Assembly (NCBI GenBank): GCA_963801605.1
Contig: CAWDFP010000006.1
Location: 1,280,001 to 1,344,000, forward strand
Origin: an uncultured candidate division Zixibacteria bacterium
GTDB taxonomy: Bacteria; Zixibacteria; MSB-5A5; UBA10806
Direction of reading: 5' to 3'
DNA: 64,000 nucleotides
The notes below the pieces were generated by a model, which worked only from the letters and a program-made list of their open reading frames with translations, did no database searches and had not been told where the DNA came from. Position 1 is the first letter of the stretch. The number at the start of each line of letters is the position of its first letter. This document shows, piece after piece, positions 31,685-57,937 of this stretch. The position numbers and the translations under genes are program-made.

Positions 31685-32068
31685 CTATTGTCCCGATTTA
31701 GCGGGCGTTACTGCCTCCCCTTTCCTGGCCACGGCTGCTCGTGCCACCCTATCCGCCGTCTCACGTCCAACACCGGTGATTTCGATTATCCGATCTATTG
31801 CTCGATCCAGCCACACAGACCAGTGCGCCGTCGGAAACTTGAGACGGAAATAATCGGTGACATCGTCAGCGATCACCAGGATATACTCCGCCACCTCCCG
31901 GTTTTTCTGAACCATCAGCAGCGGTACCAGATGCTTTTTTACAAGCACCCCGATATAAATCATCAGTATCGCCCCAAGTGCGGCCAGTGATTTCTCCGTT
32001 AACAGACCTCCAAGCCAGGAGAATACTCCCGCCTGCATCGGATTAATTAAACATATTTGATAAATCAT
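31685..32068 (-). CDS. Holin-like small membrane protein (LL-H-like), last gene of capsid operon
   Basis: GGAGG RBS plus ATG 32068; one TM followed by an amphipathic helical tail ending 'ARAAV'. Confidence 0.45.
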   Translation of the reverse strand: MIYQICLINPMQAGVFSWLGGLLTEKSLAALGAILMIYIGVLVKKHLVPLLMVQKNREVAEYILVIADDVTDYFRLKFPTAHWSVWLDRAIDRIIEITGVGRETADRVARAAVARKGEAVTPAKSGQ

Positions 32069-32196
32069 TTTGATTCCTCCAATTGGTTTTTGTGGCGTCA
32101 GGACCCCGATCCTGACGCTTTGCGTTTCGCTCATTTCGGTCGGGTTTTTGGACCCACCGCATAATTAACTCACAACCCGCAATTTGTAACTCATAA

Positions 32197-33306
32197 CTAC
32201 CTGAATTGCCAGCTTGCCGTATCCGGTACTACCACCTTTGATTTCAGAATCACGCCTGATGGATACTCAAGTGCAAATTGGTATTTTGAATTCGTTTTCG
32301 AAAGAACGCTATTAGGGAAAAGATCAATCTGCCAGTAGCCGCTGGAATCGCTGGTTGTGGAACGTTTGAAAGGCGTAATCACTATATTGCCATATTTAAC
32401 GGGTTGGTAGTCCGCTGGAATCTCCGCAGAAATAGTTGCACCCGTCACATCCTTTCCGCTGATATCATAAACCCAGCCATAAACGCGGCATAATTCCGGC
32501 GATGGCGGGTTGCCGGGATCAAACGGTGTCATGCTTAATTGCCAGACCGAATCGCGATGAACGTCAAGGGTATCATATATCGAAACGTAATTGTTGGCCG
32601 TAACAGATATAAAGTACGAGGCTTCGTCAAGCTCGACGATTCTTCTTCCGTTTATATCGGTGGAAAGACCCGGCACTCTGGTGACTGTTTGATCCAGCGA
32701 CCTGATCACAATTCGGGCGCCCTGGATAGGAGATATGCCGTTTTGTTTGACCAATAACGTGCAGGCTTCGCTTCCCCCGCCGCTGATGGAAAGCCCGGCG
32801 ATATCAGCATCGATACCATCTACACCATTGCCATCGGTAAAATCATATACCATTTTAAGACGATCCAGAGCCCTGATATAGGCAGTATCTGAGACAGCAA
32901 GCAAACTCTCGATTGGATGCTCACTGACATAATACCAGCCCTTATGCATGTGACTGACCCGTTTGCCGTTGTAGTTTTTGGTTACCAACGCCCACCAGGT
33001 ATAAGCCCCGAGATGGCCGCTGCTATCCGAGGCTCGAGACCGCCATTCAAACATGGTGTTCGCTGGCCAGGAGTTGCCTATATCGTAAGCGGTAGGAGAT
33101 GTAAGTGTAACCTCCTTAAAGGCGGCGCTTCCGTAACATTGCTTGATATAGGCGGTATCCCAGGCGGCGTAATCAAGTCCTTGAGAATCGGCGAAACAGA
33201 ACTGAATGACGAGAGTATCATTTTTATCTCCAGAACCGTTATCAAAAATCAAACCGGCCCAGGCTGTCGATGTCAGCAACAGGAAGCCTGCCAATATTTT
33301 CTTCAT
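32197..33306 (-). CDS. Secreted protein with C-terminal carboxypeptidase-regulatory-like/Ig domains
   Basis: Signal peptide MKKILAGFLLLTSTAWA; 'CRVYGWVYD.SG..V.GA.I', 'SDSSGYWQIDL.PNS'. Confidence 0.65.
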   Translation of the reverse strand: MKKILAGFLLLTSTAWAGLIFDNGSGDKNDTLVIQFCFADSQGLDYAAWDTAYIKQCYGSAAFKEVTLTSPTAYDIGNSWPANTMFEWRSRASDSSGHLGAYTWWALVTKNYNGKRVSHMHKGWYYVSEHPIESLLAVSDTAYIRALDRLKMVYDFTDGNGVDGIDADIAGLSISGGGSEACTLLVKQNGISPIQGARIVIRSLDQTVTRVPGLSTDINGRRIVELDEASYFISVTANNYVSIYDTLDVHRDSVWQLSMTPFDPGNPPSPELCRVYGWVYDISGKDVTGATISAEIPADYQPVKYGNIVITPFKRSTTSDSSGYWQIDLFPNSVLSKTNSKYQFALEYPSGVILKSKVVVPDTASWQFR

Positions 33307-33908
33307 CTATCATTCTCCATTCTAATCATTCTCTGGCGACGCACTAACAATGCAGATTCATGGTAGAAAATTTTTATCGCCATGCAATCGATATAAGTAT
33401 CTGTTAGCCACTCATCCCAGGAAGTAACCGCATAAAGGCCGAAAGCAGTTGAGTTCGCGCCCGAAATAGTAATAACGATGGGATCGAAATTGAGAAATCT
33501 CGCGCTGTCTGCTCCGGCAACCCCTGAAAGAAGAAATTCGTGCCAGGCGCCGCGGTTTGAACCGGCAATGAATCCGATCTCAAGAATAGCGTAGTCGCCT
33601 TCGCTTGAACCAGCCCCCGTAAATTTATACCAGAGGCTGTCGATTATCGCGTCTGAGGGCAAACTAAATCCATAGTTGGATGTAAAAAGGCTATCATCTA
33701 CGTTGAGACCCATATAGTAGGCGCTGGAGCCATTGCAGGTTTGTACGTAATTGGGATATTCCCACCCCGATCCGGATGCGACCGAATCGCTTTGAGGATA
33801 ATGCCAACCGGTGCTTGCGCCAAATGCCGTAGATACTAAGGCGGCCATTAATATTATGACCAGAAAGCAGACGCGGGACGGAAAGCTATCGTTTATTTTG
33901 ATTGTCAT
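33303..33908 (-). CDS. Exported beta-sandwich hypothetical protein
   Basis: Hydrophobic N-terminal signal, 'NYGFSLPSDAII' motif; overlaps the next gene. Confidence 0.55.
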   Translation of the reverse strand: MTIKINDSFPSRVCFLVIILMAALVSTAFGASTGWHYPQSDSVASGSGWEYPNYVQTCNGSSAYYMGLNVDDSLFTSNYGFSLPSDAIIDSLWYKFTGAGSSEGDYAILEIGFIAGSNRGAWHEFLLSGVAGADSARFLNFDPIVITISGANSTAFGLYAVTSWDEWLTDTYIDCMAIKIFYHESALLVRRQRMIRMENDR

Positions 33909-33916
33909 TCTCCTTC

Positions 33917-34739
33917 CTATGCTTTCGATGGTGACTTAAAGGAACTTATGGCGATCGCAAAACGCGAAAGGATATTGAACGATTCCTTGCGGTACATATC
34001 AGAGATGGTAGCCCAGGATTGTGCATCATTGCCAGAGGTTTTGACCCGCAGCAGGCGATAGCGATTCCATTGCTTTGATACGGCAGATAATCGATACTGC
34101 CATATAGGTCTCAGCCATCACCAAACCGCGGTCGGACGATTCCCGATACGATTCATCGATAAATGAATTAACCTGTTCGTTGGCTTCGGTTATGGCATTA
34201 TCAATAGTGGAATCATCAAGGCTTCCATATTCGGTGGTATAATCGATCAAGACCCATTGTCCGGCCTCGATTGCTCCGGCGGAACGGCGGCGGATAGTCC
34301 CTGCCTGGTAATCGATATCGTAATCGACTCCTCTTTGGTAGACCCGGTAAAATTGATACCAGATTACAACATCGGAGTTGGCCGGAATAGCGCTTACCGT
34401 TAAACGGCGAATCGTGCCGAGACTGTAATCAATATGGTAATCGATATTTTCCACATAAACGATACCCAGGGAACTATCGCTGGCAACAATTATCGAATCG
34501 GGTATTAATTTGGGATGTCCAAGCTGAACCTCATCTCCCATAGCGAAGCTAATCGTTTCCCTAACCGGGACATTTTGCTCTTTGGCTTTAATCGTTTCGG
34601 ATGATGCCAGAATCATCTGATTCTGAAGTTGCGTAGAATCCGAGACTGAGAACTCGGCGGTTTCATTAGAGACGATTGCCGAACCTATATGATGATCCAG
34701 AATATGCTTTTTTACGATTTCGTTTGTTGTAAATGGCAT
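33917..34739 (-). CDS. Head-tail adaptor-like protein with inserted tandem beta repeats (frameshift near 34045)
   Basis: N-terminal 'MPFTTNEIVK'; C-terminal 'IDNAITEANEQVNSFI..LVMAETYMAVS', then in the shifted frame 'WATISDMYRKESFNILSRF' to TAG 33917. Confidence 0.5.
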
Positions 34740-34740
34740 T

Positions 34741-35112
34741 TTAGTTCATCTCCATAATTATGAGGTCAACCAGGGCATCGGTCTCAGACTCGGGCGATTT
34801 CGCCAGTCGAAATGATGTTGTCCCAATCGATCCTACCACAAAGCTTCCGACTTCGTTTTTGGGGACAATGATGATCTCAGCATTATTTAGCGATTCGGGC
34901 AGCGCGTTGCCTCGGTGGTCAACTAAGTCTGCAAATTCCACGACTTGAGCAGCCGCGCCGCAGAGTTCGCGAAAGACGATCAGACGATTTGAAGATGGAC
35001 CATTTTCGGTGGCGATGATTGCGGTATCGAGCGAGCCGGAATCTCCCCAGACAACATAATCGCGTACCAGCCACTTGCGATTGCCGGTGAGATAATCGAA
35101 TGTCACATTCAT
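34741..35112 (-). CDS. Hypothetical protein in capsid operon
   Basis: 123 aa ORF tightly coupled to both neighbours. Confidence 0.6.
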   Translation of the reverse strand: MNVTFDYLTGNRKWLVRDYVVWGDSGSLDTAIIATENGPSSNRLIVFRELCGAAAQVVEFADLVDHRGNALPESLNNAEIIIVPKNEVGSFVVGSIGTTSFRLAKSPESETDALVDLIIMEMN

Positions 35113-36548
35113 GCGCCCTCCTCGGCAAGCGCCAGATCATTGAGTTTGGCGGCAGCTAATATCTGGGTGCCAATCGGATTAGTTTCAAAGCCGTTCTCGA
35201 CTCGCGCCCGAACCCAATAAGCGGAGATATTGTTTACCAGACCCAACTGCCAACCGGATGGAGCCGACGCAGCATCCTGCCAGAAATAGATAAGCACATC
35301 AGGGGAATCGAAATTATATCCTCCGGAATTAGGCGTAAATTGCACCCAGGATGAACCATCGAAATATTCCCAGACAACACTGCCTCCGGTACCGGAGGTC
35401 GATAGAATTATAGCGGCACAGAAGAATTTCGATTGCTTTCCCAGATATATACAATCGCCTATCGAATCGAGCAGCCCTTGCGATATCGAATGGAAAATAT
35501 CACCGGCCGTGGTATTGCCTGCCGCTGAGGTTTTATCCTGATACTGCGGCGATCCGGCATTCACATAGAGTATGACCTTATCCAATTGTCCCAGAGCCTG
35601 CGAAAAATTCTCCAGGTTAAAAACCGATCCTGATTTTCTGGCATAGCGCGGAATGAAGTAATTATTTCCCAGATGTTTTCCAAAGAAGATGTGAGGCTTA
35701 TTATCGCGGTAAATTATCTGAGGGGATCTAGCCTCAACGCTTTCCACCTCGATCAAGCCGCTCCAGAGTAGACCATCGAATTCCTTAAGGTAGACTTTGT
35801 CTGATTCTGACGGGGAAAATACAACTCCGAGCCTGCCGTCCTCACTTGGAGCTAAATGAAAGCAATCATCTATATAATCCAGCGAGGCGATAGCCGATTC
35901 ATCCTCCCAAACAGGGTTTGAAAGATCGCATCTTCTTAATATCAGGTTGGATCGTCCCACACAATAGACGGCATATATTTTGGATAGATGCTGACAGATT
36001 CCGACATAACCTTGTTCCACCCAGGACGCCGAAAGTGTTGTTCCCCGATCTGTCGGGCCGGTCCCCCAGCTTTGGCCGTCATCCGTTGATGTTTTAGCCT
36101 GGATCGTGTGCCTCATATTGGTAGAAATCCAATGATGATCGAACAGGCACCACAGCTTACTATCGGCATCTTTCAGAATGACCGGTCGGGAGGAATGATC
36201 AAGATTACAAACGACAAGAGGGCTTCCCTGATTCCAGACTCCCGCGTTCAGAGTCAACTTGATTACCTTCAAGACCTGATTCGTATCGGCATAAACCAGG
36301 TAAATATTCCCCGCGGAATCGATACATGCTGAGAAAGGGGAATCATGAGCGTCGCTGGCAATCTGCTGAGCCGCCGACCATGACTGATAGGGATAATCGG
36401 CAAATTTCAGCGATATGCTATTGGCTGAGTCGGCGTAAAGCGCCACCAACCGGCCCTTGAAAATGCCTGATGGCACTTTCAGAAGCCTCGTTTGGGGCGG
36501 CGACCCGGATGGCCGGGCCGCCGTCGAATTTGAAAGCAGTTTATGCAT
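35109..36548 (-). CDS. Beta-propeller/BNR-repeat protein in capsid operon (possible virion appendage)
   Basis: Asp-box 'STDDGQSWG', propeller-like repeats, C-terminal 'WEYFDGSSW' and 'YWVRARV'; no signal peptide. Confidence 0.55.
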   Translation of the reverse strand: MHKLLSNSTAARPSGSPPQTRLLKVPSGIFKGRLVALYADSANSISLKFADYPYQSWSAAQQIASDAHDSPFSACIDSAGNIYLVYADTNQVLKVIKLTLNAGVWNQGSPLVVCNLDHSSRPVILKDADSKLWCLFDHHWISTNMRHTIQAKTSTDDGQSWGTGPTDRGTTLSASWVEQGYVGICQHLSKIYAVYCVGRSNLILRRCDLSNPVWEDESAIASLDYIDDCFHLAPSEDGRLGVVFSPSESDKVYLKEFDGLLWSGLIEVESVEARSPQIIYRDNKPHIFFGKHLGNNYFIPRYARKSGSVFNLENFSQALGQLDKVILYVNAGSPQYQDKTSAAGNTTAGDIFHSISQGLLDSIGDCIYLGKQSKFFCAAIILSTSGTGGSVVWEYFDGSSWVQFTPNSGGYNFDSPDVLIYFWQDAASAPSGWQLGLVNNISAYWVRARVENGFETNPIGTQILAAAKLNDLALAEEGA

Positions 36549-36562
36549 TAGCTACCTCAATC

Positions 36563-37660
36563 TCAAGTCCAGACCGAGTCGAGCACCAATGAGGCCTCTT
36601 TGACCACCTTGGCATAAGCGATAGACTCGGATATTACGGCCTCCTCGATCTTTTGCTCGATCACCTTGTCATATTCCACCATCAGAGGCTGGCTGATGAC
36701 TTCCTCGATCGCAAAACGGTTGTCGAGTCCGATCAAATAATCGGTGGGAACCTCATCACATCGAATCAGGGTGGCGCCCAGGGGCGAGGTGATCTCTCCG
36801 TTGGTCTGGAAATTGAAACCGATCATCGGGTCTTTGAATTCGGTGAGAGTCAGGATCGATCTAATCTTGTCCTTATGACAAATAAGAACATTGGGCTGAT
36901 AGGGATAGAATTCATTCCAAAATTTCACCAGGTCGTCATAATCGAGCGTGCCGGTGACATCGGTATTGACGACCGTCGCCGAATTGGTATTGCCATCGCC
37001 ATTAATGATGGTATTCACAATCAAAGCCATCTTGTCGGATTGCAGCCGGTAACCGATGTACCACAAGAGCACCTTGAACTGCGCCATACTGCGGTACCGC
37101 AGCGCTTTGTACGTAACTTTGAGCGTCAGGCCGTAATCGGGCACCACGATCGTATTATTCTGTTCGGTGACATTGACCGATGGAATCTCGGCGCCATCGC
37201 CAACCGGACGAAGCGACATGGAAGCATCGGTAGCGCTGTGATCTATCTTAATAGGAGAATAGCGCGAGGTATTTACCTGGGCGCTGGAGGCTATCAGCCG
37301 TCCCAGTTCCGGCCGCATATTCATGCCTCTGCGAATCTCGCGCATCATAAATTCGGGCATCAAAGCCGGCGCTCCGCGATAGAACATTTCGACCGTGATC
37401 GGATTGCGTCCGCCGGTGCGCAAACCACGTAGAGCCAATTGACGCTCGAACGCATCGAGCGGTGAACTTGCGGGACTGGGATCGTACTCCGATTGCTCCA
37501 GAAGCTCGGTGAGAGTCAGGCCGCGGGCTTGAGCATCCATATAGAGGTCGCGGCTAACATCGATCTTTTTGGCGCGCGTCAAATCAACTGATTTTGCGCC
37601 TTTGGTATCGGATACAAATGCATTTCCTAAATCGGACGATAACAGTTTTTCCATTTCCAT
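36563..37660 (-). CDS. Phage major capsid protein (HK97 fold)
   Basis: 365 aa; 'LDAFERQL', 'LMPEFMMREIRRGM', 'VGDGAEIP', 'YGLTLKVTYKALR', 'IINGDGNTNSA', 'LDYDDLV', 'EYDKVIEQKIE'; follows a decoration-like gene. Confidence 0.8.
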   Translation of the reverse strand: MEMEKLLSSDLGNAFVSDTKGAKSVDLTRAKKIDVSRDLYMDAQARGLTLTELLEQSEYDPSPASSPLDAFERQLALRGLRTGGRNPITVEMFYRGAPALMPEFMMREIRRGMNMRPELGRLIASSAQVNTSRYSPIKIDHSATDASMSLRPVGDGAEIPSVNVTEQNNTIVVPDYGLTLKVTYKALRYRSMAQFKVLLWYIGYRLQSDKMALIVNTIINGDGNTNSATVVNTDVTGTLDYDDLVKFWNEFYPYQPNVLICHKDKIRSILTLTEFKDPMIGFNFQTNGEITSPLGATLIRCDEVPTDYLIGLDNRFAIEEVISQPLMVEYDKVIEQKIEEAVISESIAYAKVVKEASLVLDSVWT

Positions 37661-37726
37661 TATTTCTCTCCTTTTGATTTCATGAGTGGCAGACCCCTGG
37701 GCCTGCCTGGCGATCTTTCATTAATC

Positions 37727-38149
37727 CTAATTCAAAATCAGCGTTACGTCTGTAGCGCCGTTGACATTGACGACCGTACCGCGAGCCACGTTACCGCCGG
37801 CGGGATCGTACGCGGCCAAAACAGGTGCTTGCCTGACAGCCCCGGAGCCATTAACCACCACTCGATTGCCAACTGCCGGCGTTGTTGCCGCTGATGTTAA
37901 AGTGCAGATACCGCCGACCTGGACTGTAGCGACGCGCTTGCCGTTATCGACATCGGTCAGCGAAAGATCGATGAGCTTTCCGAGCAGAATGCCGCCATTG
38001 GTTCCCAGGCTGATTTCGTAATTGCCCACGATACTTACAGCCTTGCCAATATCAATATCCTTGAGATCATCAAGATTGGCGGTCTGATGAATCTTGAATG
38101 TCGCTGTTTGAAAGCCGATACTCTGCAAATTTTGGTCTCTTACTGCCAT
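37727..38149 (-). CDS. Capsid decoration/cement-like protein (DUF2190-like)
   Basis: 140 aa Gly/Val-rich 'IGKAVSI.G', 'ATVQVGG', 'PAVGNRVVVNGSGAV'; immediately upstream of the capsid gene. Confidence 0.6.
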   Translation of the reverse strand: MAVRDQNLQSIGFQTATFKIHQTANLDDLKDIDIGKAVSIVGNYEISLGTNGGILLGKLIDLSLTDVDNGKRVATVQVGGICTLTSAATTPAVGNRVVVNGSGAVRQAPVLAAYDPAGGNVARGTVVNVNGATDVTLILN

Positions 38150-38215
38150 TGTTTCTCCTTTTGATTAAATGCTGCGATTTTGATCTCATATCTTACTGCG
38201 ATTCCCGAATCTGAT

Positions 38216-38440
38216 TTACCTGTAATCCCCCGTATAAATGATTTTGCTATGTTCGATCGATTCCCTTGTCTTCAGCAGACGCATTTGGATAGGATTTAGA
38301 TCCATGTGCATTCCACTCGTTTGAAGCTCGCTTTTGATTATTTCCAGATCGGAGGTTATCCGATCAAAATCAATCTGTTCCGTTTTCAAAGGCGTCTTCA
38401 ATTGATTTCTTGATTCCCTCGATTCGTTTGACAATTTCAT
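38216..38440 (-). CDS. Small helical hypothetical protein (possible scaffold remnant)
   Basis: 74 aa ORF with upstream GGAGG, co-oriented inside the operon. Confidence 0.45.
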   Translation of the reverse strand: MKLSNESRESRNQLKTPLKTEQIDFDRITSDLEIIKSELQTSGMHMDLNPIQMRLLKTRESIEHSKIIYTGDYR

Positions 38441-38483
38441 TTATTTCCAAATTGACCTCCTTGACAGTTGGGTAGACCCAACC

Positions 38484-38798
38484 CTATTTGCCGCTGTTAT
38501 AATTCATTGGTCTTGATGTTTTTGCCTTTGGCTGTTCCAGTATGGTCTCAATAGCCGAAAGCCTGGCAACTACCTCATTTTTGAAATCGAAGAGATCGCC
38601 CTTGGTGGAAAACCGCTCATTGATTGTGGCCTCAAGGCGGGCCAGACGAATATCGAGCTCGGCCACATAATGTTCCTCGGCCTTGGTGGCAAGCCCGACG
38701 CGAAGGCCGGTATAAGCGGCATAGTATCCGGATAACGCCGCAGCTACAGCCATGGCAAAGCTTATCAGGTATTTCACAAGCGGTTCTTTGGGAAACAT
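38484..38798 (-). CDS. Small protein with N-terminal TM anchor and coiled coil
   Basis: Hydrophobic segment then heptads 'LDIRLARLEATINERF'; GGGAG RBS. Confidence 0.55.
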   Translation of the reverse strand: MFPKEPLVKYLISFAMAVAAALSGYYAAYTGLRVGLATKAEEHYVAELDIRLARLEATINERFSTKGDLFDFKNEVVARLSAIETILEQPKAKTSRPMNYNSGK

Positions 38799-38810
38799 AT
38801 TTGAACTCCC

Positions 38811-39524
38811 TTACTCGTCTTTGATAAGAAGGCATTCACGGCCGCCGAATAGCCCAACGGCTGTGCGTCGATCTGATTCAGTCACCGACCTGATTTCAGC
38901 GCAACTCACCCGGATAACTTTCTTAATATCTGCCGAAAGCTTGTCGGTGATATAGGTGCCTCTAACCGATCCTTTGTAGACCAGCGATGTTTCCAATACC
39001 TGCGAAATACCGCCGTAAATGAAATGGGGCGAGTCGGGGCCAGCGCCAGGATCATGTGGACATCGCCGGATATCCTCGCCGCAGATTGAGCATTCGGGAA
39101 CGGTGTAGATAAATGAAATCGAACACTCTTTTAAAATGCCTGAATCGATCTTAAGAAGCAGTTCGTCGCTTCCCTCGGCTCTTGGCCAATAGAAGTAGCT
39201 CTTAAGCCAGAGAATCTCGCCGCCCTCTTCCAGCTCAGCGTGAAAGGTGCGCGCCAACGGAGTTTCGGAACGGTTATGGCCAACGAGCACCGGGGTATCC
39301 GCAATCAGCTCGCAGAGTTTTGACAGGTCCTCCCGACGAAATCGTCCTCCATGCGAATTGATCATATCGTTGACCACATACATGGCTCGGATATTGACAT
39401 TTTCCGCAGTAGCCGGCTTGGGCGGTTTTATGATGCTGTTGATTTTGTCAATCAGGGCAGCCCGGCGATCTTCCGGATCACCAAGTGATAAACTGCCGAT
39501 TAGCGTTTCAGTAATCTTTTCCAA
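38811..39524 (-). CDS. Prohead maturation protease-like protein with Zn-ribbon
   Basis: GGAGG RBS plus TTG 39524; 'PVLVGHN' (His), 'IDSGILKECSISF' (Ser), 'CSICG....CPH', 'ETSLV'. Confidence 0.65.
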   Translation of the reverse strand: MEKITETLIGSLSLGDPEDRRAALIDKINSIIKPPKPATAENVNIRAMYVVNDMINSHGGRFRREDLSKLCELIADTPVLVGHNRSETPLARTFHAELEEGGEILWLKSYFYWPRAEGSDELLLKIDSGILKECSISFIYTVPECSICGEDIRRCPHDPGAGPDSPHFIYGGISQVLETSLVYKGSVRGTYITDKLSADIKKVIRVSCAEIRSVTESDRRTAVGLFGGRECLLIKDE

Positions 39525-39553: not shown

Positions 39554-39603
39554 AAATCAAAATGCACTTTGAACGCGTTTTAGAGTCGCTATAAGAGCGT
39601 GGA
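39554..39603 (-). promoter_or_regulatory. Shared upstream motif, copy 1 (capsid operon)
   Basis: Minus strand TCCACGCTCTTA-N10-AAAACGCGTTCAAAGTGCATTTTGATTT; both blocks are identical to 54337-54385. Confidence 0.8.
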
Positions 39604-39887: not shown

Positions 39888-39898
39888 ATTAATTACAA

Positions 39899-44037: not shown

Positions 44038-44985
44038 ATGAAATCGCGCGCCCCCAAAAACAGAACCATTTCGCTCTCAAATACCGACCGCAAGCGGTTA
44101 TCAAATAAATTGATTTGCCCCTATTATGCCGAAACGAAAATAATTCCGCTCAATTCGACTATCCTTGGCGATTACACGCAGATAGTCCCCTTTATGCCTC
44201 AATCAAGCGTTGATTTGATGATTCTCGATCCACCCTATAACCTAAATAAAACCTTCAACGGGAATTCCTTTAAGCGGCGCTCCGTAGATGATTATACAAG
44301 TTATCTAAAAGAAGTCCTGGAGGCATTGATCCCCCTGCTCAAACCCACCGCGACCGTTTATATCTGCGGGGATTGGCTGAGTTCGGCGTCAATCTTTGCG
44401 GCGGCGTCAGAGTTGCTTGTTGTCAGGAACCGCCTCACCTGGGAACGGGAGAAGGGGAGAGGCGCCTCCAAAAACTGGAAAAATTCGTCCGAGGATATCT
44501 GGTTTTGCACGGTGTCGGATAGATACACTTTCAATATCAAAGATGTAAAATTGCGCCGAAAGGTTCTTGCGCCTTATCGCTCTAATGATGGCGCGCCGAA
44601 AGACTGGAATGAAACCGCATCCGGCAACTTCCGCGATACGGCGCCGTCCAATATTTGGACCGATATTACAATCCCGTTTTGGTCGATGCCTGAAAACACC
44701 GATCATCCCACCCAAAAGAGCGAAAAGCTGATCGCCAGGCTAATTCTGGCATCGAGCAATCGCGGCGATCTCGTGTTCGATCCCTTTCTCGGGAGCGGAA
44801 CAACATCGGTAACAGCCAAAAAGCTTGGACGAAAATATCTTGGTATCGAAATCGAGAAGGAGTTCTGTCTCCTCGCGGAGAAACGGTTGGAATTGGCTGA
44901 CGGCGAACCTTCAATTCAAGGATATACATCAGGAATTTTCTGGGAACGCAATACGTATTCCGAACAGACTAATATAAAACGATAG
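44038..44985 (+). CDS. Orphan N6A/N4C DNA methyltransferase (beta class)
   Basis: 'DPPYN' before 'HPTQK' and 'DPFLGSGTT'; no adjacent endonuclease seen. Confidence 0.9.
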   Translation: MKSRAPKNRTISLSNTDRKRLSNKLICPYYAETKIIPLNSTILGDYTQIVPFMPQSSVDLMILDPPYNLNKTFNGNSFKRRSVDDYTSYLKEVLEALIPLLKPTATVYICGDWLSSASIFAAASELLVVRNRLTWEREKGRGASKNWKNSSEDIWFCTVSDRYTFNIKDVKLRRKVLAPYRSNDGAPKDWNETASGNFRDTAPSNIWTDITIPFWSMPENTDHPTQKSEKLIARLILASSNRGDLVFDPFLGSGTTSVTAKKLGRKYLGIEIEKEFCLLAEKRLELADGEPSIQGYTSGIFWERNTYSEQTNIKR

Positions 44986-46256: not shown

Positions 46257-46751
46257 GTGATGGCCAGAATTGATTATGTTGAACCTGAAGTCTTACAGTC
46301 ACTTATCTCGCTTGAAACGGCACCGGTTGATCCCCGGTTGAAAGCCGAAGTCGAAAAGGCTTTGGCACAGCTTCCAGAGCATCTGCAGGAACTTGTAATT
46401 GCCCGAATTTATCAGGGCAAGACCCTTAATCAGATTATGCGACTTAACAATCTTCCGCGGGAATTGGTCATTTCGGAACTCAAGGAAGCCATGCGCCAAC
46501 TTCGATTGCTCCTGGCCGATTTTGTTCGCAATCGTTGGAATATCGAAATAGGCCCGATTTGCAGGATCTGTGTTCATCCACAACGCGAAAATATCAATCG
46601 AATGCTCAGAAATAAACCGGATTCCCAATCCTGGGGATTATTTGGAAAACATTTGCGGCGCGAAATTGGAGAGAATATCGGTCCCCCGAGGGTTTTTATT
46701 ACTCATCTGAATCATATTGAAAGGAGTAGAAATGACTATGCGGGCAGATAA
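46257..46751 (+). CDS. Sigma-70 region-4-like HTH fused to a CxxC...HxxH Zn-binding domain
   Basis: 'VEKALAQLPEHLQELV..R..QGKTLNQI' then 'CRICVHPQRENI...THLNH'. Confidence 0.6.
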   Translation: MMARIDYVEPEVLQSLISLETAPVDPRLKAEVEKALAQLPEHLQELVIARIYQGKTLNQIMRLNNLPRELVISELKEAMRQLRLLLADFVRNRWNIEIGPICRICVHPQRENINRMLRNKPDSQSWGLFGKHLRREIGENIGPPRVFITHLNHIERSRNDYAGR

Positions 46752-46962
46752 GCATCACGTTCAAATCCGCCTATCGATGCAGACCAAAAAGGAACTCCGC
46801 GACGCCTCCAAACACTTGGAATTGACGGAATCGGATGTTATGCGAAGCGCCCTGTTTTTCGGATTGCCGATCGTGGTCGCTATGAACGAATTGCAGGGGG
46901 AATTGATAAAACGTCTGGTTAAGAAACTGAAGGGTGAGGCGCGAATTCACCGATCCGGCTGA
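46732..46962 (+). CDS. Ribbon-helix-helix-like small DNA-binding protein
   Basis: 'VQIRLS..TKKEL...S..L..TESDVMRSAL'; AAGGAG RBS; coupled to the upstream gene. Confidence 0.55.
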   Translation: MTMRADKHHVQIRLSMQTKKELRDASKHLELTESDVMRSALFFGLPIVVAMNELQGELIKRLVKKLKGEARIHRSG

Positions 46963-47519: not shown

Positions 47520-47717
47520 GTCATATTAAATTGCGTTCGCCCGAAAACTGTTCCCTCGATTTATCATTACGATAAGATAGGAGTATAATGGATTAATGAT
47601 ACATGTGGGATGCTCTGCAATTTCGATTGCAGATTCTATTCCGGGCCGATATATTTCCGGTAGGAATTTCGAACTATGAGAAATAATTTAAATAGATTCA
47701 AAAAGATGGAGCCGATA

Positions 47718-48893
47718 ATGAAAAAAGCAGCAATTCTAATGCTCGCTCTTTTGGCTTTGGTTCAAGTGGCGTCCGCAGTGGAGTTCACCGGTTCTTATGC
47801 CGATGTCAAAGCTCAGGCCATCACCCAGGGAAAGCCAATCCTGATCGATTTCTTCGCCGAATGGTGAAGCGCCTGCAAGCAGTTCGCTGGTGCAGTGAAC
47901 TCAAATGCCGAGATTCAAAAAGCGCTGGAACCGGTCATCCTTTACCGTGTGGATTGTGAAAAAGGCGCCGGTAGGGATTTGGCCAAAGAATTTAATATCA
48001 GGGCTTATCCCACATTTATCTTGGTTAATAAAGATGGGCAAATGCTGGATATTTGGCTGGGTTTCGAAAAGGCCAGTTTCATTAAAACTTTAGACGATGC
48101 CCGCACCGATCTTACCACAATCGAGGAGAAAAAGGCGCGTTATAAAGCCCTTCCCGATTTACGGTCGGCGGCAGTACTGGGCCGATATTCCTCGGCGATA
48201 GGCGAATATAAAGATGCGGTTAATTATTTTCGTAGGGCCTATGTGCTTTCAAGTGATACCAGGGCTGATTATGTTTTCGATATTTTTGAAAACACCGCCA
48301 GTGGCGCTAGAAAAAATATATTTACATACGACGATGTTTCCCAGGCAGCCGAGGCTATCATCAACGGACCGAAAAGAGATCCCTGGCAAGTCGTTCAGGT
48401 AATTACCGAGATGATCGGAATTGCTAAAAATCTCAATAAAACAGACGATGTCGCCAAGTATACTCAGGCCGGGCTTGACGCTACATCCGTAAGCGATGAT
48501 CCCGATATCAAAAACATGCACTCCGAGTTGATGGTTGAATTCGCATTATCTGTTAAGCATGATACCGCCACGGCAGTTGAATATAAAAAAGCGGCCATGC
48601 CGGATGGTTGGCAAACCGATGCCGGCAGGCTTAATGAATTTGCCTGGTGGTGTTTTGAGAATAAAACCAATCTTACCGAGGCCGAGCAACTTTCCCGCAA
48701 GTCAATCGAATTGGCCAAGCCGGGACGAGAAATATCGAATTGCTATGATACCTTAGCCGAAATTGTAAACGCTAAGGGCAATCCCAAAGAGGCGCTGGAA
48801 TTATCGAAGAAAGCCGTAACCGAGGATCCCTCGAATAAGTATTTCCCCACGCAGGTCGAACGGTTCCAAAAGGCCGTTACGCCATCGAAATAG
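47718..48893 (+). CDS. Exported thioredoxin-fold selenoprotein (WUxxC) with C-terminal TPR-like repeats
   Basis: ORFs 47676 and 47895 are in the same frame, joined by TGA 47865-47867: PILIDFFAEW-U-SACKQF; cis-Pro 'AYPT' downstream. Confidence 0.85.
47873..47895 (+). promoter_or_regulatory. Candidate SECIS hairpin
   Basis: CTGCA-ag-CAG-TTCG-CTG-g-TGCAG beginning 5 nt after the UGA. Confidence 0.5.
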
Positions 48894-51359: not shown

Positions 51360-51742
51360 TTATCCCTCTTAAAAAAATGGTTTGACTGCCAGTCTGTCGC
51401 CTCTATTAAAGGCATCCATTAACATTATCGGAATATTTGACAAAAGATTTATGGGCTGAATTGAAAGTGACAGCCATCCTCGATCAAGGGGTAAATCGAT
51501 TATAAAGGTGTTTCCACGCTTAAAGTGACCACAAATAAACTTATATATGCCAGTTATGAGCATTTAATTAGACTTAGCTTTTTATGCATATCAAATAAAA
51601 TGAGTCTTTTAGAATGAAATTTGTTAAAAAAATAGGGCTGCGAATGTATCAATTCAACAGCCCTTATACTCAAAATACAATTATATTTTGTTCAGCGCCG
51701 CCAAGTATACTTGTAATTCCTGCTCCGACAGGCAAAAGTCAT

Positions 51743-53416
51743 TTATTTTATAACCATCATTTTTTTGGTTTCCGAAAAAGTGCCTGTCTCAATTCGATAG
51801 AAGTAGGTGCCTGATGGCTGATTGCCGGAGTTCCAGGTAATTTTGTGATAGCCCGCTTCCTGGTAGTTATCAACCAATACCTCTATGCGCCTGCCGGTAA
51901 TGTCATAAACTTCAATGCTAACGTGAGATTGCTCCGGAAGGCCATACGCAATAGTCGTTGTCCCATTAAAAGGATTTGGATAAGATTGTCCAAGAACATA
52001 ATCGGATGGCACAGTCTCGTACTCTTCATCCGTCTCATCTTCAAATTTCGACATAAAAACATTTCCCGCGCGGATTCTAAAATTGCGATTTGATCTGGCG
52101 TTGGCCATATTCCCGAAAGTATCGCGCACTGAAACCCTAACACGGCAAGTTCTCGACGATACATTTGGGACTATCCAATTATATCTATGAGGATCCCCCG
52201 ATGTCCAATCCGCGATCATCGTCCAAATAGTCCCTGCATCGATGCTGTATTCCAGTTTATAGGCCGCTACCCCAACGTTATCATTATCGGTCCATGTGAT
52301 GCTATAGGTATTAAATCCTCTTAAATTTTGGCCACCGTTGGGATTGATTAAGGTTAACGTAGGGATAGTATTATCCCTGATGGTGAAATTAGCATTTGAA
52401 AGATCGCTGCCGATAGCCCCAAAGGCGTCTCTGCATGAAATTCTTATCTTCGCGCTTATTGTGGGATTGGGGGGTACGGTCCAGGCAAAAGTATGAGGAT
52501 CCCCTGTTGTCCAATCGCGAATTATGAGCCAGGTGGCGCCTGAATCAGCCGAATATTCCAGTTTGTGAGAGGCAATCCCGCCGACTACATCGCTATCGGT
52601 CCAGATAATATTATGCGCAGAACCAATATCCCAAATTTCGCTTCCGTTAGGCGCGCCAACTGTAACCAGAGGATTATCGTTTTGCGAACTGGGAACAACA
52701 AAGGAATCCGGTCTGGACCACAGGCTTGAATCGCTTAGATCCCTGGCCATCACCCGACAATGCCAATAGTATTTTACGGCGCGATTTAAGCCCGTGTATG
52801 TTACCATTGCCAGTGAATCTATCAGGCTGTCTGCTGATATTGATGGGTTTGAAAAATTAGATGAGAAATCTAATGCGAATTGGTATTTGATTGGTAACGG
52901 TGCCCCCACCGTATCTGCCTTAAGCGTGGCCGACGCCTGCACTGAATCCATAACGGCCGGCCTTGGATTCGGAGTCATTAGTCCCCCCGCAAATTTCCTG
53001 ATTACATTTGATATTACCGAGACATTACCGGCCCGGTCATAAGTCTTAATGGCGAGATAGTAAGGCGCCCCGCGATTAAGCCCGGAGAATGTAAAGCTCT
53101 GAATTGAGCCCGCAGGAAGAGGAAGCGGTGGATTGGGGATACTTGGAGCCAATCCCCAATTTAATTCCGTAATAATAGTACTTGAGCATTTGATGATATA
53201 ATGATCGGCGGTCCCGTTATTCCCATCATCGCCTGGCGCGGTCCAATGAATAGTCATTTCTCCGGGGACAGTCTCGATTGACGCCGGCGAAAGAGTTATA
53301 TCATCTTTAAAAGCGGGTTGTAGATGTACGGATTGTACAGCATATAATGTTGAGAATTGCAGCCCCCATAATACAATAAAAACCATAAATATGGTTTTTC
53401 GCCTCGATAACGTCAT
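51743..53416 (-). CDS. Secreted FN3/Ig-repeat protein with PNPFN-type C-terminal sorting domain
   Basis: 'WTAPGDDG', repeated 'PNG.E/Q..I.WTD..LEYS.D.G..W', 'YPNPFN.TT.I.Y..SGTYFYRI..KKM'. Confidence 0.8.
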   Translation of the reverse strand: MTLSRRKTIFMVFIVLWGLQFSTLYAVQSVHLQPAFKDDITLSPASIETVPGEMTIHWTAPGDDGNNGTADHYIIKCSSTIITELNWGLAPSIPNPPLPLPAGSIQSFTFSGLNRGAPYYLAIKTYDRAGNVSVISNVIRKFAGGLMTPNPRPAVMDSVQASATLKADTVGAPLPIKYQFALDFSSNFSNPSISADSLIDSLAMVTYTGLNRAVKYYWHCRVMARDLSDSSLWSRPDSFVVPSSQNDNPLVTVGAPNGSEIWDIGSAHNIIWTDSDVVGGIASHKLEYSADSGATWLIIRDWTTGDPHTFAWTVPPNPTISAKIRISCRDAFGAIGSDLSNANFTIRDNTIPTLTLINPNGGQNLRGFNTYSITWTDNDNVGVAAYKLEYSIDAGTIWTMIADWTSGDPHRYNWIVPNVSSRTCRVRVSVRDTFGNMANARSNRNFRIRAGNVFMSKFEDETDEEYETVPSDYVLGQSYPNPFNGTTTIAYGLPEQSHVSIEVYDITGRRIEVLVDNYQEAGYHKITWNSGNQPSGTYFYRIETGTFSETKKMMVIK

Positions 53417-54336
53417 TCATCCTCCTTGAACTAAACTTGTTGACGTCTTTACAGCCCGCTTTTCACCGTCAAACGGACTTTTTTATTTTGGCGATTATTT
53501 TATTAATTAGATCGTAGATATTTCTCTGGGAAATCGATGCGATCTAATTCAATTTAGTTTATTTCGTCGAAGTTGAATCCCTCATTCAACAATTGACGAA
53601 TTTGCTCAATAGGCTTCCTCCATATTCATCCATTTCGTAATTATCGAGCTCACAATCAAAATTAATGCCATGAATTTAGCTACGGCACAATAAACGACCG
53701 CCTTGTATCTGCATTGAACTCCTTATATTTAAGGACTTCAATACACCTTGGCTTTGGGCCAGCCCGCCTTTTGTCTTAAATTATTATTGTTACGAACTAG
53801 AGGATACTCAACACGAACTATTTGTACTATTTAAGAAGTCGCAGAAGAACCCTTAAAGCATCCCACCAATTACAACTTAACCGGCTCAGTCATATATCTC
53901 ACGGCCGGTCGCACGCCCCTTCTGAGAGCCTGCCTAACGCATATAGTGCATTAATCATCAGCTCGTCAAGAGTTATTTGTAACATTCCTAAAATATTGTT
54001 ACTAACACTTGTGTTACATAATTATCTATACTTATTTGGGATACACGGGATATTTTGAAGATTATTTTTATGCCGTAATCCTCTTAAAAAATTAAAAAAC
54101 TATTATATTTCCCGTTATAAAATGATTTGATCAGAATTTTCAATCGAAAGTCTTCGAACTTGGGCAATAAGTGTATCTAAAACCTTAGATCGATATTCAA
54201 ATATATAGGTGTCGACCGATTTATATGATTTTAGCCCTATTAAATTGAATGAAGATGCATCCGCCCTGAGTGAATAATCCAAGGTAGACTTCTAATTACA
54301 CACTCCTCTCTATAAACAGATATATCTAAAATTTTC

Positions 54337-54385
54337 TCCACGCTCTTAAATGTCCTCAAAACGCGTTCAAAGTGCATTTTGATTT
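54337..54385 (+). promoter_or_regulatory. Shared upstream motif, copy 2 (portal-terminase operon)
   Basis: TCCACGCTCTTA-N9-AAAACGCGTTCAAAGTGCATTTTGATTT. Confidence 0.8.
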
Positions 54386-54429
54386 CCCAAGCCTATAAAA
54401 GTGAAGAGATGATGAAAGGAGAATCGTTA

Positions 54430-55710
54430 ATGTTTGGATTTAAGAAAATACCTAAGGTACCACAGGGTAATCTAGCTGCCAATGCCCGAATGATCAAAGC
54501 GCATCAAGCGCGTGAAAAGGCGGGATCGCCGTTAAAATCCGGATCTGCAACCATTTCTTTTCCCGCAGAATATGGTTTTGCGGAAAGGGTAACGCTTTAT
54601 CGATTTCTAAGAGAGAATATCCCAATTATAAGCGGCGCCATCTGGATTTGGTCCCGCCTCTGTGCCAGTCCAATGGAATTCCAGTTAAGCGGAGGCCCCA
54701 GCAAGCATAATATCGCTTTGCTCAAATCGCATTTAGACAAACTTAATACTCTGCTTTCGCCCAACGCTTACTATAAATCCGGCGGCCTGGACAGGCTTTG
54801 CGATCTCTTTTTCAGTTCCCTTTTTATCGATGGCGCCTTTGCTGGAAATATCGAGATCGATCAATCCGGAAAATTGGCCGGTTTTACTCCCTGCGATATT
54901 AGAAATTTATCTTTCGAATCTGATAATGGTCAAAACGGTTATCCCGGATGGAAAATATATCGCCAAATCGAGGGCAATCGGGAGCTTCTCGATCCCGCTA
55001 CTTTCATCTACATCCCTCTTGATGATGATGCTTGCGATCCTCGTGGCAAAAGCATATTGCAGTCGGTCGGTTTTGTCAGCCGGTTGGAACAAAAACTTCT
55101 CGACGATATGCAAAAATCGCAGGAAAAAGCCGGGTATAACAGGTTACATGTTCTTATTAAAAAACCCGAAAGGCGTTTAGGCGAAACCGAGCAAAATTAT
55201 ATCGATCGCGCTAACGGCTATTTCGATGATACCGTCACGCTTTTTTCCGGAATCAAACCATCAGATTCGGCAGTCACCTGGGATGATATCGAAATTAAGA
55301 CAATCGGGCCATCGTCGGGCGCGGGAAGCGCCAGCAACTCCTGGTATCTCTCGCATCGGGCGCTGGTCGAGGATATCTGCGCCGGTGTGCATCTCGATCC
55401 ATTCATGTTAGGCTATTCTTACTCATCGACCCAAACCTGGGCCAGGTTCAAATTCGAGCTTGTTCTACGTGAGATTATATCAGTCCAGAAGCAGGCGGCC
55501 AAATTTTTCGAATGGCTGGTCAACACTCATCTGGCCCTTGAGGGTTCAAGTTCGGCAGTATCTGTCAAATTCGATAACGATCGGGTTAATAGTGTTCTTG
55601 AAAAATACCGTGCCGAGCGTGAAGCCAGCGATCGGGTTATCGAGTTATTCAAGGCTGGCCTTCTTACCAGGGAAGAGGCTCGCGAAAAAATCAATGAAAG
55701 GATCGATTGA
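54430..55710 (+). CDS. Phage portal protein
   Basis: About 426 aa; 'LYRFLRENIPIISGAI', 'SLFIDGAF..I', 'DPRGKSIL', 'EDICAGV.L.PFMLG', 'WLVNTHL...V.FD', 'GLLTREEARE'; upstream of terminase. Confidence 0.75.
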   Translation: MFGFKKIPKVPQGNLAANARMIKAHQAREKAGSPLKSGSATISFPAEYGFAERVTLYRFLRENIPIISGAIWIWSRLCASPMEFQLSGGPSKHNIALLKSHLDKLNTLLSPNAYYKSGGLDRLCDLFFSSLFIDGAFAGNIEIDQSGKLAGFTPCDIRNLSFESDNGQNGYPGWKIYRQIEGNRELLDPATFIYIPLDDDACDPRGKSILQSVGFVSRLEQKLLDDMQKSQEKAGYNRLHVLIKKPERRLGETEQNYIDRANGYFDDTVTLFSGIKPSDSAVTWDDIEIKTIGPSSGAGSASNSWYLSHRALVEDICAGVHLDPFMLGYSYSSTQTWARFKFELVLREIISVQKQAAKFFEWLVNTHLALEGSSSAVSVKFDNDRVNSVLEKYRAEREASDRVIELFKAGLLTREEAREKINERID

Positions 55711-56048
55711 CCATGCAGCCATCCTCATGCGCCATCTGCGATTCGCCATTGCGCTCCGAAATCGAAAAACTTGATTCCCAATGGAACGACATTCATACTG
55801 TTCAGTGGGCCCGTAAACAAGGACTAAATATCAGTCGTTTTTCGCTTGTAAAACATCGAACCAACCATTTGCAATCAGCGGCCCCCGGAAATAATGGCAA
55901 CGGCGGGAAAACACTTGATAATAAACCCGCAGAGATTGTCGTGCTTAAACCGTTAAAGTCTGCTATTAAGGAAATGGTACAACCATCGGAAAATAATATT
56001 CCGAAAACAAAACGTAAAAATAATGGCCAACGGCATTCCCGAAAATAG
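55707..56048 (+). CDS. Zn-binding HTH-like protein (CxxC...HxxxH), possible packaging/DNA-binding subunit
   Basis: 'CAICDSPLRSEIE...ISRFSLVKHRTNH'; overlaps the portal stop. Confidence 0.55.
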   Translation: MTMQPSSCAICDSPLRSEIEKLDSQWNDIHTVQWARKQGLNISRFSLVKHRTNHLQSAAPGNNGNGGKTLDNKPAEIVVLKPLKSAIKEMVQPSENNIPKTKRKNNGQRHSRK

Positions 56049-56364
56049 ATCGGTAAAGCCCGTTGATACAATATCCTCTGTGGAAAACTCCCAACCCGAA
56101 GCAAATTCGAACACAACTAAATCGGAACCGTTGATAGAAAAAGCAGTCCCCGCGAAATCGCATACTACTATTACCGATCAATTGCTTCTCGACACAGTGC
56201 GAGATCAGGTTTACCAAAAACTCGTTAGTGGCGAAATCAATCTCGGATTGAGTGATGGTTTCAAGGCAATCGAGATCAAGCACAAGATTGCCGAGGGATC
56301 GCAAAATGAGAAGCTGCTTCTGGAGATCTTAAGCGAGATCCGTTCTCAGGAGCTGGCAACCTGA
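56023..56364 (+). CDS. Putative terminase small subunit (helical)
   Basis: Position before the large terminase; helical 'LSDGFKAIEIK.KI'. May be one gene with 55707 if a frameshift is present. Confidence 0.45.
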   Translation: MANGIPENRSVKPVDTISSVENSQPEANSNTTKSEPLIEKAVPAKSHTTITDQLLLDTVRDQVYQKLVSGEINLGLSDGFKAIEIKHKIAEGSQNEKLLLEILSEIRSQELAT

Positions 56365-56366
56365 TA

Positions 56367-56504
56367 GCCATTGCGAGGTCTCCGGTCTAAGAGACTGAAG
56401 ACAGTGGCAATCGCCTGGCACAACGCTGTATTGCGAATAAGCGCATTATATCCCGGCCAGGCGATTGCCACTCCCCAACATTTCATGTCGGGGCTCGCAA
56501 TGGC
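56367..56504. repeat. 138-bp fold-back REP/MITE-like element
   Basis: Terminal IR GCCATTGCGAG/CTCGCAATGGC and perfect inner 17-bp IR 56403-56419/56456-56472. Confidence 0.8.
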
Positions 56505-56530
56505 CGCGGGCAGCCCGTTGGCATACCCTG

Positions 56531-57937
56531 ATGACAAATACGAGTACAAAACATCGTAACTGGCGACGAGCGATAAAGGACCCGGTCTACTTTGCGCGCG
56601 CTTTTTTGGGATTGGAGCCTCATCCGGGCCAGGCGCGCTGGCTTTGCGCAAGCACTGGCAGCGAAAACGCGCTCGTTACCGGAAATCGTTGGGGCAAATC
56701 GGAGATTCAGGCCGTTAAGCTGTTACATCGAGCGCTCTTTCAAATCCGGCCTACGGAGTGTGATGTCAAAGACTGTTATCGCTGCGTCAATGTGTCGATT
56801 ACTCAGGATCAGGCCGGGATTATTTTCGGCAAGGCCACGTCACTTATCAGCCGGTCGCGCCCGCTCCAGGCAATGGTGAAAGAGATTAAACAAACACCAT
56901 TTCCGCATATTGAACTGAAGAATGGTTCCGAGATATGGGCGCGTTCCTCGCATAACAGGGGTGAATATCTGCTTGGCCATGACTTCGATTATATCAATTT
57001 CGATGAGGCTGCCTATGAACCGTTCGGGGAATGGGTTGTTGATGGTGTTATCAAGATGCGCTTGGCGGATCGCCAGGGGACTCTCGATTTCTCATCGACT
57101 CCAAATGGGCTCAACTGGTTTTACAGGCGCTGCCAGAAGATTGAAAAGGATAAGCGCGGCCATATTCAGCACGGTTCGACATTTGAAAATCCACACCTGT
57201 CTCAGAAATATTTAGCCGATCTTAGGGAATCGCTATCGGAATCCCGGGCCGCTCAGCATCTTTATGGCAAGTTCACTTCGTTTGAGGGACGATTATTTCC
57301 TGAGGAGATTATACAGCGCTGTCTGATAACAAATGCCGGGTGGCATGCTTGTCCCGATCTTAATCGGGATAAGCATGGTAGATCGGGTTCCGAGTCCCGA
57401 ACTTATCAGGACGAGAAACCCGAAAGCCCGTCCAGTGGATTCTTCATTCATGGTTGGGATCTGGCGCGCAAGGTTACATATACTGTTGGAATATCACTTG
57501 ATACTACAAAGCGTCCATTCCGAGTTGTAAACATCGTCCGTATGCAGCGCGAATGGCCGGTGACTATTAAATCTATCAAGGATATTCATGCCAGGTATGG
57601 CGGCATTACGATTATCGATTCCACCGGCTTAGGGGATGTGGTTCTCTCGGAACTTGGGGATATCGGGGCAATTGGTTTTAATTTCGGAGGCGGCAATCGC
57701 GATCTGCTTTTGGCCAACTTTGAACGGGCCATTTACGCCGGTGAGGTGCTCTGGCCCGATATTGAAATTCCCGATGATAACGGTGGTACCTGGAGCTTAA
57801 CCGACGAGATTCGGGCGATGGATAAATCATATGAGAATGTTGGTGATGGCGTTTGCGCGCTGGCCTTGGCGCTCTGGCAGGTCAGACAGCGATCATCCGA
57901 CCTGCCGTTTCTGAAATCAGCCGTTGGAAGTTTTTAA
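56531..57937 (+). CDS. Terminase large subunit
   Basis: 'PHPGQ', Walker A 'GNRWGKS', Walker B 'INFDEA', coupling 'SSTP', nuclease 'GWDLA', 'IDSTGLGD', 'DGVCALALA'. Confidence 0.88.
   Translation: MTNTSTKHRNWRRAIKDPVYFARAFLGLEPHPGQARWLCASTGSENALVTGNRWGKSEIQAVKLLHRALFQIRPTECDVKDCYRCVNVSITQDQAGIIFGKATSLISRSRPLQAMVKEIKQTPFPHIELKNGSEIWARSSHNRGEYLLGHDFDYINFDEAAYEPFGEWVVDGVIKMRLADRQGTLDFSSTPNGLNWFYRRCQKIEKDKRGHIQHGSTFENPHLSQKYLADLRESLSESRAAQHLYGKFTSFEGRLFPEEIIQRCLITNAGWHACPDLNRDKHGRSGSESRTYQDEKPESPSSGFFIHGWDLARKVTYTVGISLDTTKRPFRVVNIVRMQREWPVTIKSIKDIHARYGGITIIDSTGLGDVVLSELGDIGAIGFNFGGGNRDLLLANFERAIYAGEVLWPDIEIPDDNGGTWSLTDEIRAMDKSYENVGDGVCALALALWQVRQRSSDLPFLKSAVGSF

Follow-up and report, generated by a model that had tools for sequence, protein, structure and literature searches.

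A phylum-wide, phage-derived head and DNA-packaging gene set in Zixibacteria: a candidate gene transfer agent-like system without a long tail

Why would a bacterial chromosome keep the genes for a phage head and its DNA-packaging motor, divided between two operons and with no recognisable tape measure or integrase beside them? This question is raised by a 64,000-nucleotide stretch, hereafter the window, from an uncultured Zixibacteria bacterium (assembly GCA_963801605.1, here genome G000; contig CAWDFP010000006.1, positions 1,280,001 to 1,344,000). An initial annotation made from the letters alone had described a head operon and, on the opposite strand, a packaging operon; both were found where it had placed them (Table 1), its capsid, portal and terminase calls are borne out by PHROG and Pfam matches, and the ATPase and nuclease motifs of the terminase are intact. 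Based on our data, there is very little doubt that one operon supplies the capsid half and the other the DNA-packing half of a host-domesticated, vertically inherited, phage-derived gene set. [quoted passage not shown]

The distribution of the system argues strongly for domestication. Among 285 Zixibacteria species genomes, the capsid gene was found in 256, the terminase gene in 263 and the portal gene in 262, and for the 198 genomes that are at least 90% complete the corresponding counts are 189, 190 and 190 (~95%). G000 itself is 87% complete at a genome size of about 3 Mb. None of the three genes was found in the three genomes of two small families, f13 and f14. In a sample of 30 genomes, drawn from those with a capsid match, each genome had one capsid and one terminase match. 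These two lie within 13 kb on the same strand in 23 genomes, are split on one contig in five (19 kb to 1.4 Mb) and are on separate contigs in two. The recurring order, among the matches listed, is portal, terminase, protease, transmembrane protein, decoration protein, capsid, propeller protein, adaptor and 123-aa protein, exported proteins and holin-like protein, in varying host neighbourhoods. Since 23 of the 30 genomes keep one cluster, the split in G000 is a later local rearrangement and not a defining trait.

The inheritance and the selection acting on these genes point in the same direction. Trees were built for 29 genomes (G000 was omitted because its rpoB is broken), and 19 of 26 splits of the capsid tree and 18 of 26 of the terminase tree are shared with the rpoB tree, compared to a mean of 0.3 and a maximum of 2-4 with shuffled labels; among splits supported at ≥0.95 there was no conflict between either tree and rpoB. 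The tree lengths are 8.9 for capsid, 15.1 for terminase and 7.6 for rpoB. Median ratios of non-synonymous to synonymous substitution rates (dN/dS; Nei-Gojobori, seven cluster genes, 2-39 unsaturated pairs per gene after saturated pairs were dropped) indicate purifying selection throughout: 0.063 for terminase (4 pairs), 0.071 for capsid (39), 0.076 for portal (2), 0.085 for the decoration protein (31), 0.113 for the adaptor (18), 0.122 for the propeller protein (13) and 0.171 for the protease (5). The GC content at third codon positions (GC3) of 15 cluster open reading frames (ORFs) is 0.41-0.62 versus a genome median of 0.51 (5-95%: 0.43-0.59). Near-universal presence, congruence with the host tree, purifying selection and host-like GC3, together with the absence of long-tail genes and the distance to the next integrase described below, uphold the domestication proposed in the initial annotation.

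The motifs of the packaging machinery are intact and conserved. The large terminase of G000 has GNRWGKS, FDEA, GWD and IDSTGLG motifs, and in 29 sampled relatives a Walker A-type motif is present in 28, GWD in all 29 and the nuclease motif DxTGxG in 27. A "Zn protein" and a "small helical protein", initially listed as separate genes, are actually two frames of one gene, which is a single ORF in five relatives and has its helical domain in 34 of 59 loci; because of its position and shape, we assign it a putative small terminase role. Directly 5' of the portal gene, the genomes G251, G254 and G241 have a small Cys-rich ORF and a Hel308/Ski2-type helicase of about 850 aa (L055:2404-5184, L042:348-3156).

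Searches for a tail were negative. The tape measure family PF10145 had no match in G000 or five single-contig relatives, and baseplate J, sheath, the tube family PF06199, PF13550 and phrog_28, a GTA-type tail_3 family being among those searched, had none in G000 and four single-contig relatives; controls were positive in both cases, with a Caulobacter genome serving for the RcGTA-type tail families. The four tyrosine recombinases (PF00589) of G000 are all located at least 58 kb from the cluster. In the window, a Pfam scan of the 39 ORFs between 23.6 and 64 kb (the part before 23.6 kb lay outside the scan) gave no match to an integrase, tape measure or endolysin, as already noted from the letters, and none to an integration or replication module; a helicase precedes the portal gene in some relatives. 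The missing endolysin thus holds for the scanned part of the window but not for the genome, as a stand-alone, endolysin-like M15 peptidase gene is found elsewhere under the same upstream element as the two operons. M15 peptidases are a known endolysin family. A role of this gene as the universal endolysin was rejected, because it occurs in 18 of the 285 genomes alone.

This upstream element, a predicted promoter or operator of 28 nt, is identical before the head operon and the portal gene. The 3-Mb genome has nine sites, and no more even at six mismatches: the head operon, the packaging operon, the M15 gene and six structured repeats of about 300 nt. It is kept before both operons in relatives of the same family and, in the congeneric G261, before portal, protease and M15. 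A matrix derived from 12 occurrences in further genomes of this family finds the same nine sites and one weaker one, a partly circular test given that these occurrences were gathered with a pattern designed after the motif had been seen. A common element of this kind suggests co-regulation of the two operons and the M15 gene and offers a direct handle on the regulon.

The repeats themselves are intergenic units of about 420 nt, in which the element is followed by the structured sequence. On either strand, the latter folds more favourably than shuffled versions of it (z -2.6 to -5.5), and it has three relatives in G261 with 68-71% identity; of 67 predicted pairs, 16 carry compensatory changes on both sides. 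Comparison with Rfam gave no credible match. The structured sequence is confined to G000 and G261, and since matches of its core pattern elsewhere are no commoner than those of a reversed control, it does not belong to the system across the phylum as a whole. The repeat is a candidate for a co-expressed non-coding RNA or for a passenger element. The idea that it had spread the 28-nt element was rejected, as repeat-free genera have the element before both operons.

A candidate regulator lies between the operons. The spacer, at first described as cellular genes, mostly fits this description (major facilitator superfamily (MFS) transporter, cold-shock, RRM and pncA genes), but it also contains a gene pair for a protein with a sigma-70 region 4 and a CxxC...H zinc finger and for a small partner, whose ribbon-helix-helix (RHH)-like label is our own reading of the sequence. 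The first gene was found in 252 of 285 genomes, in at least eight of them 4-13 kb from portal or terminase, and the partner in 11 of 12 loci of the family. The sigma-region-4 gene is missing in 7 of 10 identified genomes lacking all three structural genes, compared to 33 of 285 overall; because several of these genomes are incomplete or related, we regard it as a candidate only.

In a GTA-like mode of action, the scattered operons would be turned on jointly, in a few cells, by a regulator for which the sigma-region-4/zinc-finger protein encoded at 46257 is a candidate. A prohead would be built from capsid, scaffold, protease and portal, and the terminase would fill it by headful packing with chromosomal DNA, because the system seems to bring along neither an origin nor att sites. 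The adaptor would close the portal vertex, while the propeller and fibre-like proteins would bind surface glycans. Holin-like and lineage-specific endolysin genes would lyse the producer, and recipients would take up the DNA, probably via their own uptake machinery since no injection tail is encoded. Such particles should be traceable as fixed-length Zixibacteria chromosomal DNA in sediment and aquifer viromes.

Several observations weigh against this scenario. No injection tail that would account for delivery was found, and searches with six tail families in 5-6 genomes would miss divergent short-tail proteins. The patchy M15 gene leaves the system without a conserved endolysin, and the holin-like protein is named by its architecture alone. 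Signal peptides in two conserved operon members are unusual for virion parts, and the CxxC domain of the small-terminase-like protein in families f1 and f2 might bind DNA specifically. Outside this family, the upstream words common to both operons are different ones, and the similarity reached significance in only 8 of 20 loci. Moreover, some genomes lack core genes: G029 (99% complete, one contig) has no large terminase, G070 and G086 (99%) keep portal and large terminase but have neither capsid nor adaptor, and in G073 and G076 the capsid gene is missing.

Against this background, the alternative that survives best, though we consider it unlikely, is that the capsids are kept for a use other than transfer, as phage decoys, for enzyme or DNA release, as an antibacterial weapon or, with the help of the signal-peptide proteins, as a DNA-export structure anchored in the envelope. 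The lack of a delivery tail would fit such a use, as would a capsid conservation near that of rpoB and a sister kit of related genes (see below) without propeller, exported protein and holin; PBSX, as cited in the available text of PMC12946183, also packages DNA without injecting it. However, the terminase ATPase and nuclease motifs and the portal are under strong selection, so DNA packing matters, and in two species the lysis-type M15 gene is under the same upstream element.

A second alternative, to which we give still less credence, is that tailless heads carry host DNA and are completed by the tails of infecting phages. This has a precedent in phage-inducible chromosomal islands of the capsid-forming type (cf-PICIs), whose tail-less capsids bind foreign tails according to the accessible part of 10.1101/2025.02.11.637232, and it would explain why an adaptor is kept in Zixibacteria and in the minimal sister kit despite the absence of a tail. 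The adaptor label is a prediction from model shape, position and Atlas leads: the model combines a helical body with a beta-rich insert (predicted local distance difference test (pLDDT) 87), and its Atlas neighbours are gp6/Gp19-type head-tail connectors with lead-level scores of 0.84-0.88. Foldseek returned matches to the beta insert alone (phi812 baseplate chains), and a profile comparison with the Clostridia adaptor gave no significant similarity. A phrog_807 "major tail protein" match likewise covers the beta insert alone and was not accepted as a sign of a tail tube. Against borrowed tails speak the bulky beta inserts of the adaptor, the lack of any IMG/VR match to the adaptor alignment, the lack of a clear stopper or connector gene, and neck genes that are strongly conserved rather than diversified (dN/dS 0.11).

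That the genes belong to a cryptic prophage, or to a satellite that is mobile and forms capsids, is very improbable. The core genes are all phage-derived, and tailed phages that carry a tape measure or sheath use the same capsid family (PF25209) at 32-37% identity, which suggests a tailed ancestor. Named phage isolates reach a capsid identity of up to 25%, and of the best 80 capsid relatives in IMG/VR one exceeded 39%, an 11-kb piece of the same cassette. Two cluster genes are also frameshifted in G000, the small-terminase-like gene and the adaptor gene, which spans two frames and encodes 237 aa compared to 269-282 aa in relatives. Yet rpoB of the same assembly is equally broken, into six pieces (C6:1494685-1498439), so the frameshifts are probably assembly indels and, given the many indel errors, weak evidence of decay. 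Above all, congruence with the host tree and purifying selection largely refute this explanation; the occurrence is phylum-wide, and neither an integrase nor a replication gene is nearby, with operons up to 1.4 Mb apart. An encapsulin-like metabolic nanocompartment, suggested by a tailless system with the capsid as its most conserved component, is scarcely conceivable, as portal and a terminase catalytically intact by its motifs are as widespread as the capsid and encapsulins come without both.

To our knowledge, few GTAs are known, nearly all of them from Alphaproteobacteria, and the reason for their retention by hosts is under debate. A system in about 95% of an uncultured phylum, with another phage ancestor and apparently without a tail, would provide an independent test of GTA retention and of whether delivery needs a tail. 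Like RcGTA and CcGTA (Rhodogtaviriformidae), as described in the accessible text of PMC9953437, the Zixibacteria system is vertical and multi-locus, has caudoviricete-derived head genes under selection and is likely under common regulation; every genomic GTA feature of the viriform description available there is found in it. Unlike RcGTA, it derives from a different phage ancestor and gave zero matches to tube, tape measure and baseplate families (PF06199, PF10145, PF13550). No PDB capsid was found with the capsid profile.

The FpGTA of Faecalibacterium forms two-locus, 40-nm GTA-like particles without visible tail and, like the Zixibacteria system, is a chromosomal two-locus head and packaging system without replication genes; a further likeness can be drawn to its lysis genes at a second locus (PMC12946183, as far as its text was available, also for the following). 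In contrast, FpGTA has an N4-gp56 family capsid rather than PF25209, compared by family label, as well as baseplate, fibre and receptor-binding protein genes, it is restricted to genus level and not phylum-wide, and its particles are demonstrated, whereas those of the system described here are predicted. The cf-PICIs also encode head and packaging functions without a tail but are mobile and self-packaging, whereas the Zixibacteria element is fixed, splittable and without integrase nearby (10.1101/2025.02.11.637232, in the part accessible). Of the cf-PICI traits, neither a nearby integrase nor a patchy distribution was found; att sites were not separately searched. A mouse-gut preprint, in its available part, mentions uncharacterised tail-less clusters of capsid, terminase and lysis genes in gut Firmicutes (10.64898/2026.07.08.737213).

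A likeness of portal, protease and capsid to head-only clusters of gut Oscillospiraceae had been suggested in the first description. The homology is real (capsid 31%, PF25209), but not all of these clusters are head-only, some having sheath and baseplate. Clostridia/Oscillospiraceae clusters of the PF25209 type (L194, L285, L303) contain homologous terminase, portal, protease and capsid genes (28-38%) among host genes; they differ in forming a separate clade, in several cases with sheath and baseplate, and in showing no Ig-adaptor, propeller or ligase fusion. They are candidates for the unassigned GTA-like packaging mentioned in the available text of PMC12946183. Such clusters, head-only or with sheath and baseplate, are widespread (also L337, L343). 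A midpoint-rooted capsid tree of 30 sequences places Zixibacteria and a sister group on one side and the tailed phages together with the Clostridia clusters on the other (100% bootstrap support). The sister kit, known from metagenome loci, is set among housekeeping genes and comprises decoration, capsid, a protein of about 125 aa, adaptor, terminase, portal and protease; no propeller, exported-protein or holin homologs were found in these loci. It has seven to eight genes (L302, L355-L403) and in L402 follows gap-pgk-tpi-secG on a 3.5-Mb contig. Full-length adaptor homologs are labelled Calditrichaeota, Ca. Hatepunaea, Ca. Electryonea and LCP-89. A Zixibacteria-type cluster (60-63% capsid identity) also occurs on contigs labelled Thermoplasmata archaeon and Ca. 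Deferrimicrobium (L181, L182), which are probably misbinned, with transfer as a possibility.

The protease gene links the particle to DNA repair. The protease gene is complete in 35 loci. In 12 of these (families f16 and f17), its product is fused to a DNA ligase of the ATP-dependent type, whose KYDG motif is intact (PF01068, E 4e-30), and to a LigD phosphoesterase-like domain (PF13298, best E 1e-4). Another 11 have forms of 480-637 aa without KYDG, four of them still ligase-like, and the remaining 12 have the short form, as in G000, where no separate copy of the ligase part was found. The simplest reading of the sequences is that an ancestral head-packaged repair enzyme has been decaying unevenly, and this graded decay (intact, degenerate, lost) would record an ongoing domestication. 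In the two families with intact fusions, the protease would bring ligase and phosphoesterase into the head. No description of the head system or of the protease-ligase fusion was found in the literature within reach, to which most subscription papers do not belong. More tentatively, and in our view doubtful as a whole, the system might represent tailless, host-owned DNA capsules that predate the Zixibacteria and are shared with Calditrichota/Electryoneota-type lineages, deliver chromosomal DNA although they have no injection tail, ancestrally co-packaged a ligase and an end-healing phosphoesterase as a fusion with the head protease and, in this genus, are co-expressed with the multi-copy ~300-nt structured RNA riding on or steering the system.

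Table 1. Features of the two operons and associated elements (window positions unless a locus or contig is named)
Feature	Position	Strand	Evidence
Holin-like protein, one transmembrane helix, conserved helical tail	31685..32134	-	last operon gene, conserved; no family match
Signal-peptide protein, 369 aa, conserved C-terminal domains	32197..33306	-	alignment and Atlas
Signal-peptide protein, variable	33303..33908	-	sequence; not conserved across loci
Head-tail adaptor, predicted, beta domains inserted; frameshifted near 34030	33917..34739	-	model and Atlas leads
123-aa beta-rich protein, conserved; possible fibre tip or stopper	34741..35112	-	no family match
Beta-propeller and beta-sandwich protein, 479 aa	35109..36548	-	AlphaFold2, pLDDT 93
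Major capsid protein, PF25209; family annotated as HK97-type	36563..37660	-	phrog_3922 E 4e-67
Capsid decoration protein	37727..38149	-	phrog_4588 E 4e-8; median dN/dS as in text
Small helical ORF, possible scaffold	38216..38440	-	similar-looking ORFs at same place in relatives; no family match
N-terminal transmembrane and coiled-coil protein, conserved; possible lysis accessory	38484..38798	-	38 homologous ORFs in 53 scanned loci
Prohead protease, predicted; short form without ligase/phosphoesterase fusion	38811..39524	-	phrog_16951 E 2e-18 (PHROGs function unknown)
28-nt upstream element, head operon, predicted promoter/operator	39554..39581	-	identical copy before portal
Spacer: MFS, desaturase, DNA methylase, RRM, cold-shock, pncA piece, response regulator, type IX secretion system (T9SS) cargo	~15 kb between operons
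Candidate regulator pair: sigma-70 region 4 and CxxC...H (zinc-finger) protein, then small RHH-like ORF	46257..46962	+	PF04545 E 2e-4
28-nt upstream element, packaging operon	54358..54385	+
Portal protein	54430..55710	+	phrog_3753 E 6e-29
Small-terminase-like gene, CxxC domain and helical oligomerisation-like domain; two ORFs by frameshift	55707..56364	+
Large terminase	56531..57937	+	phrog_2 E 5e-27, PF03237
M15 peptidase, stand-alone, endolysin-like	L253:1066-1581 (G000 C6:363565-364077)		PF13539 E 5e-17
~300-nt structured repeats, G000 (L247-L252)	C2:400, C6:1567924, C6:1401496, C7:368523, C7:87496, C11:44962	-, -, -, +, -, -
~300-nt structured repeats, G261	L261, L267, L269
Protease-ligase fusion examples	L163:6404-8608, L167:6086-8419 and ten more loci

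Of the remaining head genes, the protease role is predicted from its position and because the gene is homologous to its counterpart in Clostridia clusters and in tailed phages. For the propeller protein, Foldseek ranked sialidase and lectin propellers best, compared to template modelling scores of 0.26 for a tail chain of podophage LME-1 and 0.32-0.35 for P22 gp10-like proteins; because the sister kit has no propeller, the modelled protein is more likely a receptor-binding spike than a nozzle. Its alignment gave no match in IMG/VR. The neighbouring 123-aa protein had no family or structure match. The C-terminal part of the 369-aa signal-peptide protein has Atlas scores of 0.91-0.93 to Uroviricota clusters and of 0.87 to PF08400 (tail-fibre N-terminal domains). 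One relative of the transmembrane/coiled-coil protein weakly matches the lipoprotein family phrog_462 (E 6e-4). In G028 and G023, an extra ORF of about 132 aa directly before the holin-like gene (L052:21-24 kb, L056/L057) is a possible alternative endolysin.

Between the operons, the window also contains an orphan N6/N4 DNA methyltransferase gene (44038-44985) and a thioredoxin/TPR ORF at 47676-48893, which is open only if TGA is read as selenocysteine (UxxC motif); a tRNA-Sec is located in the window at 13255-13349.

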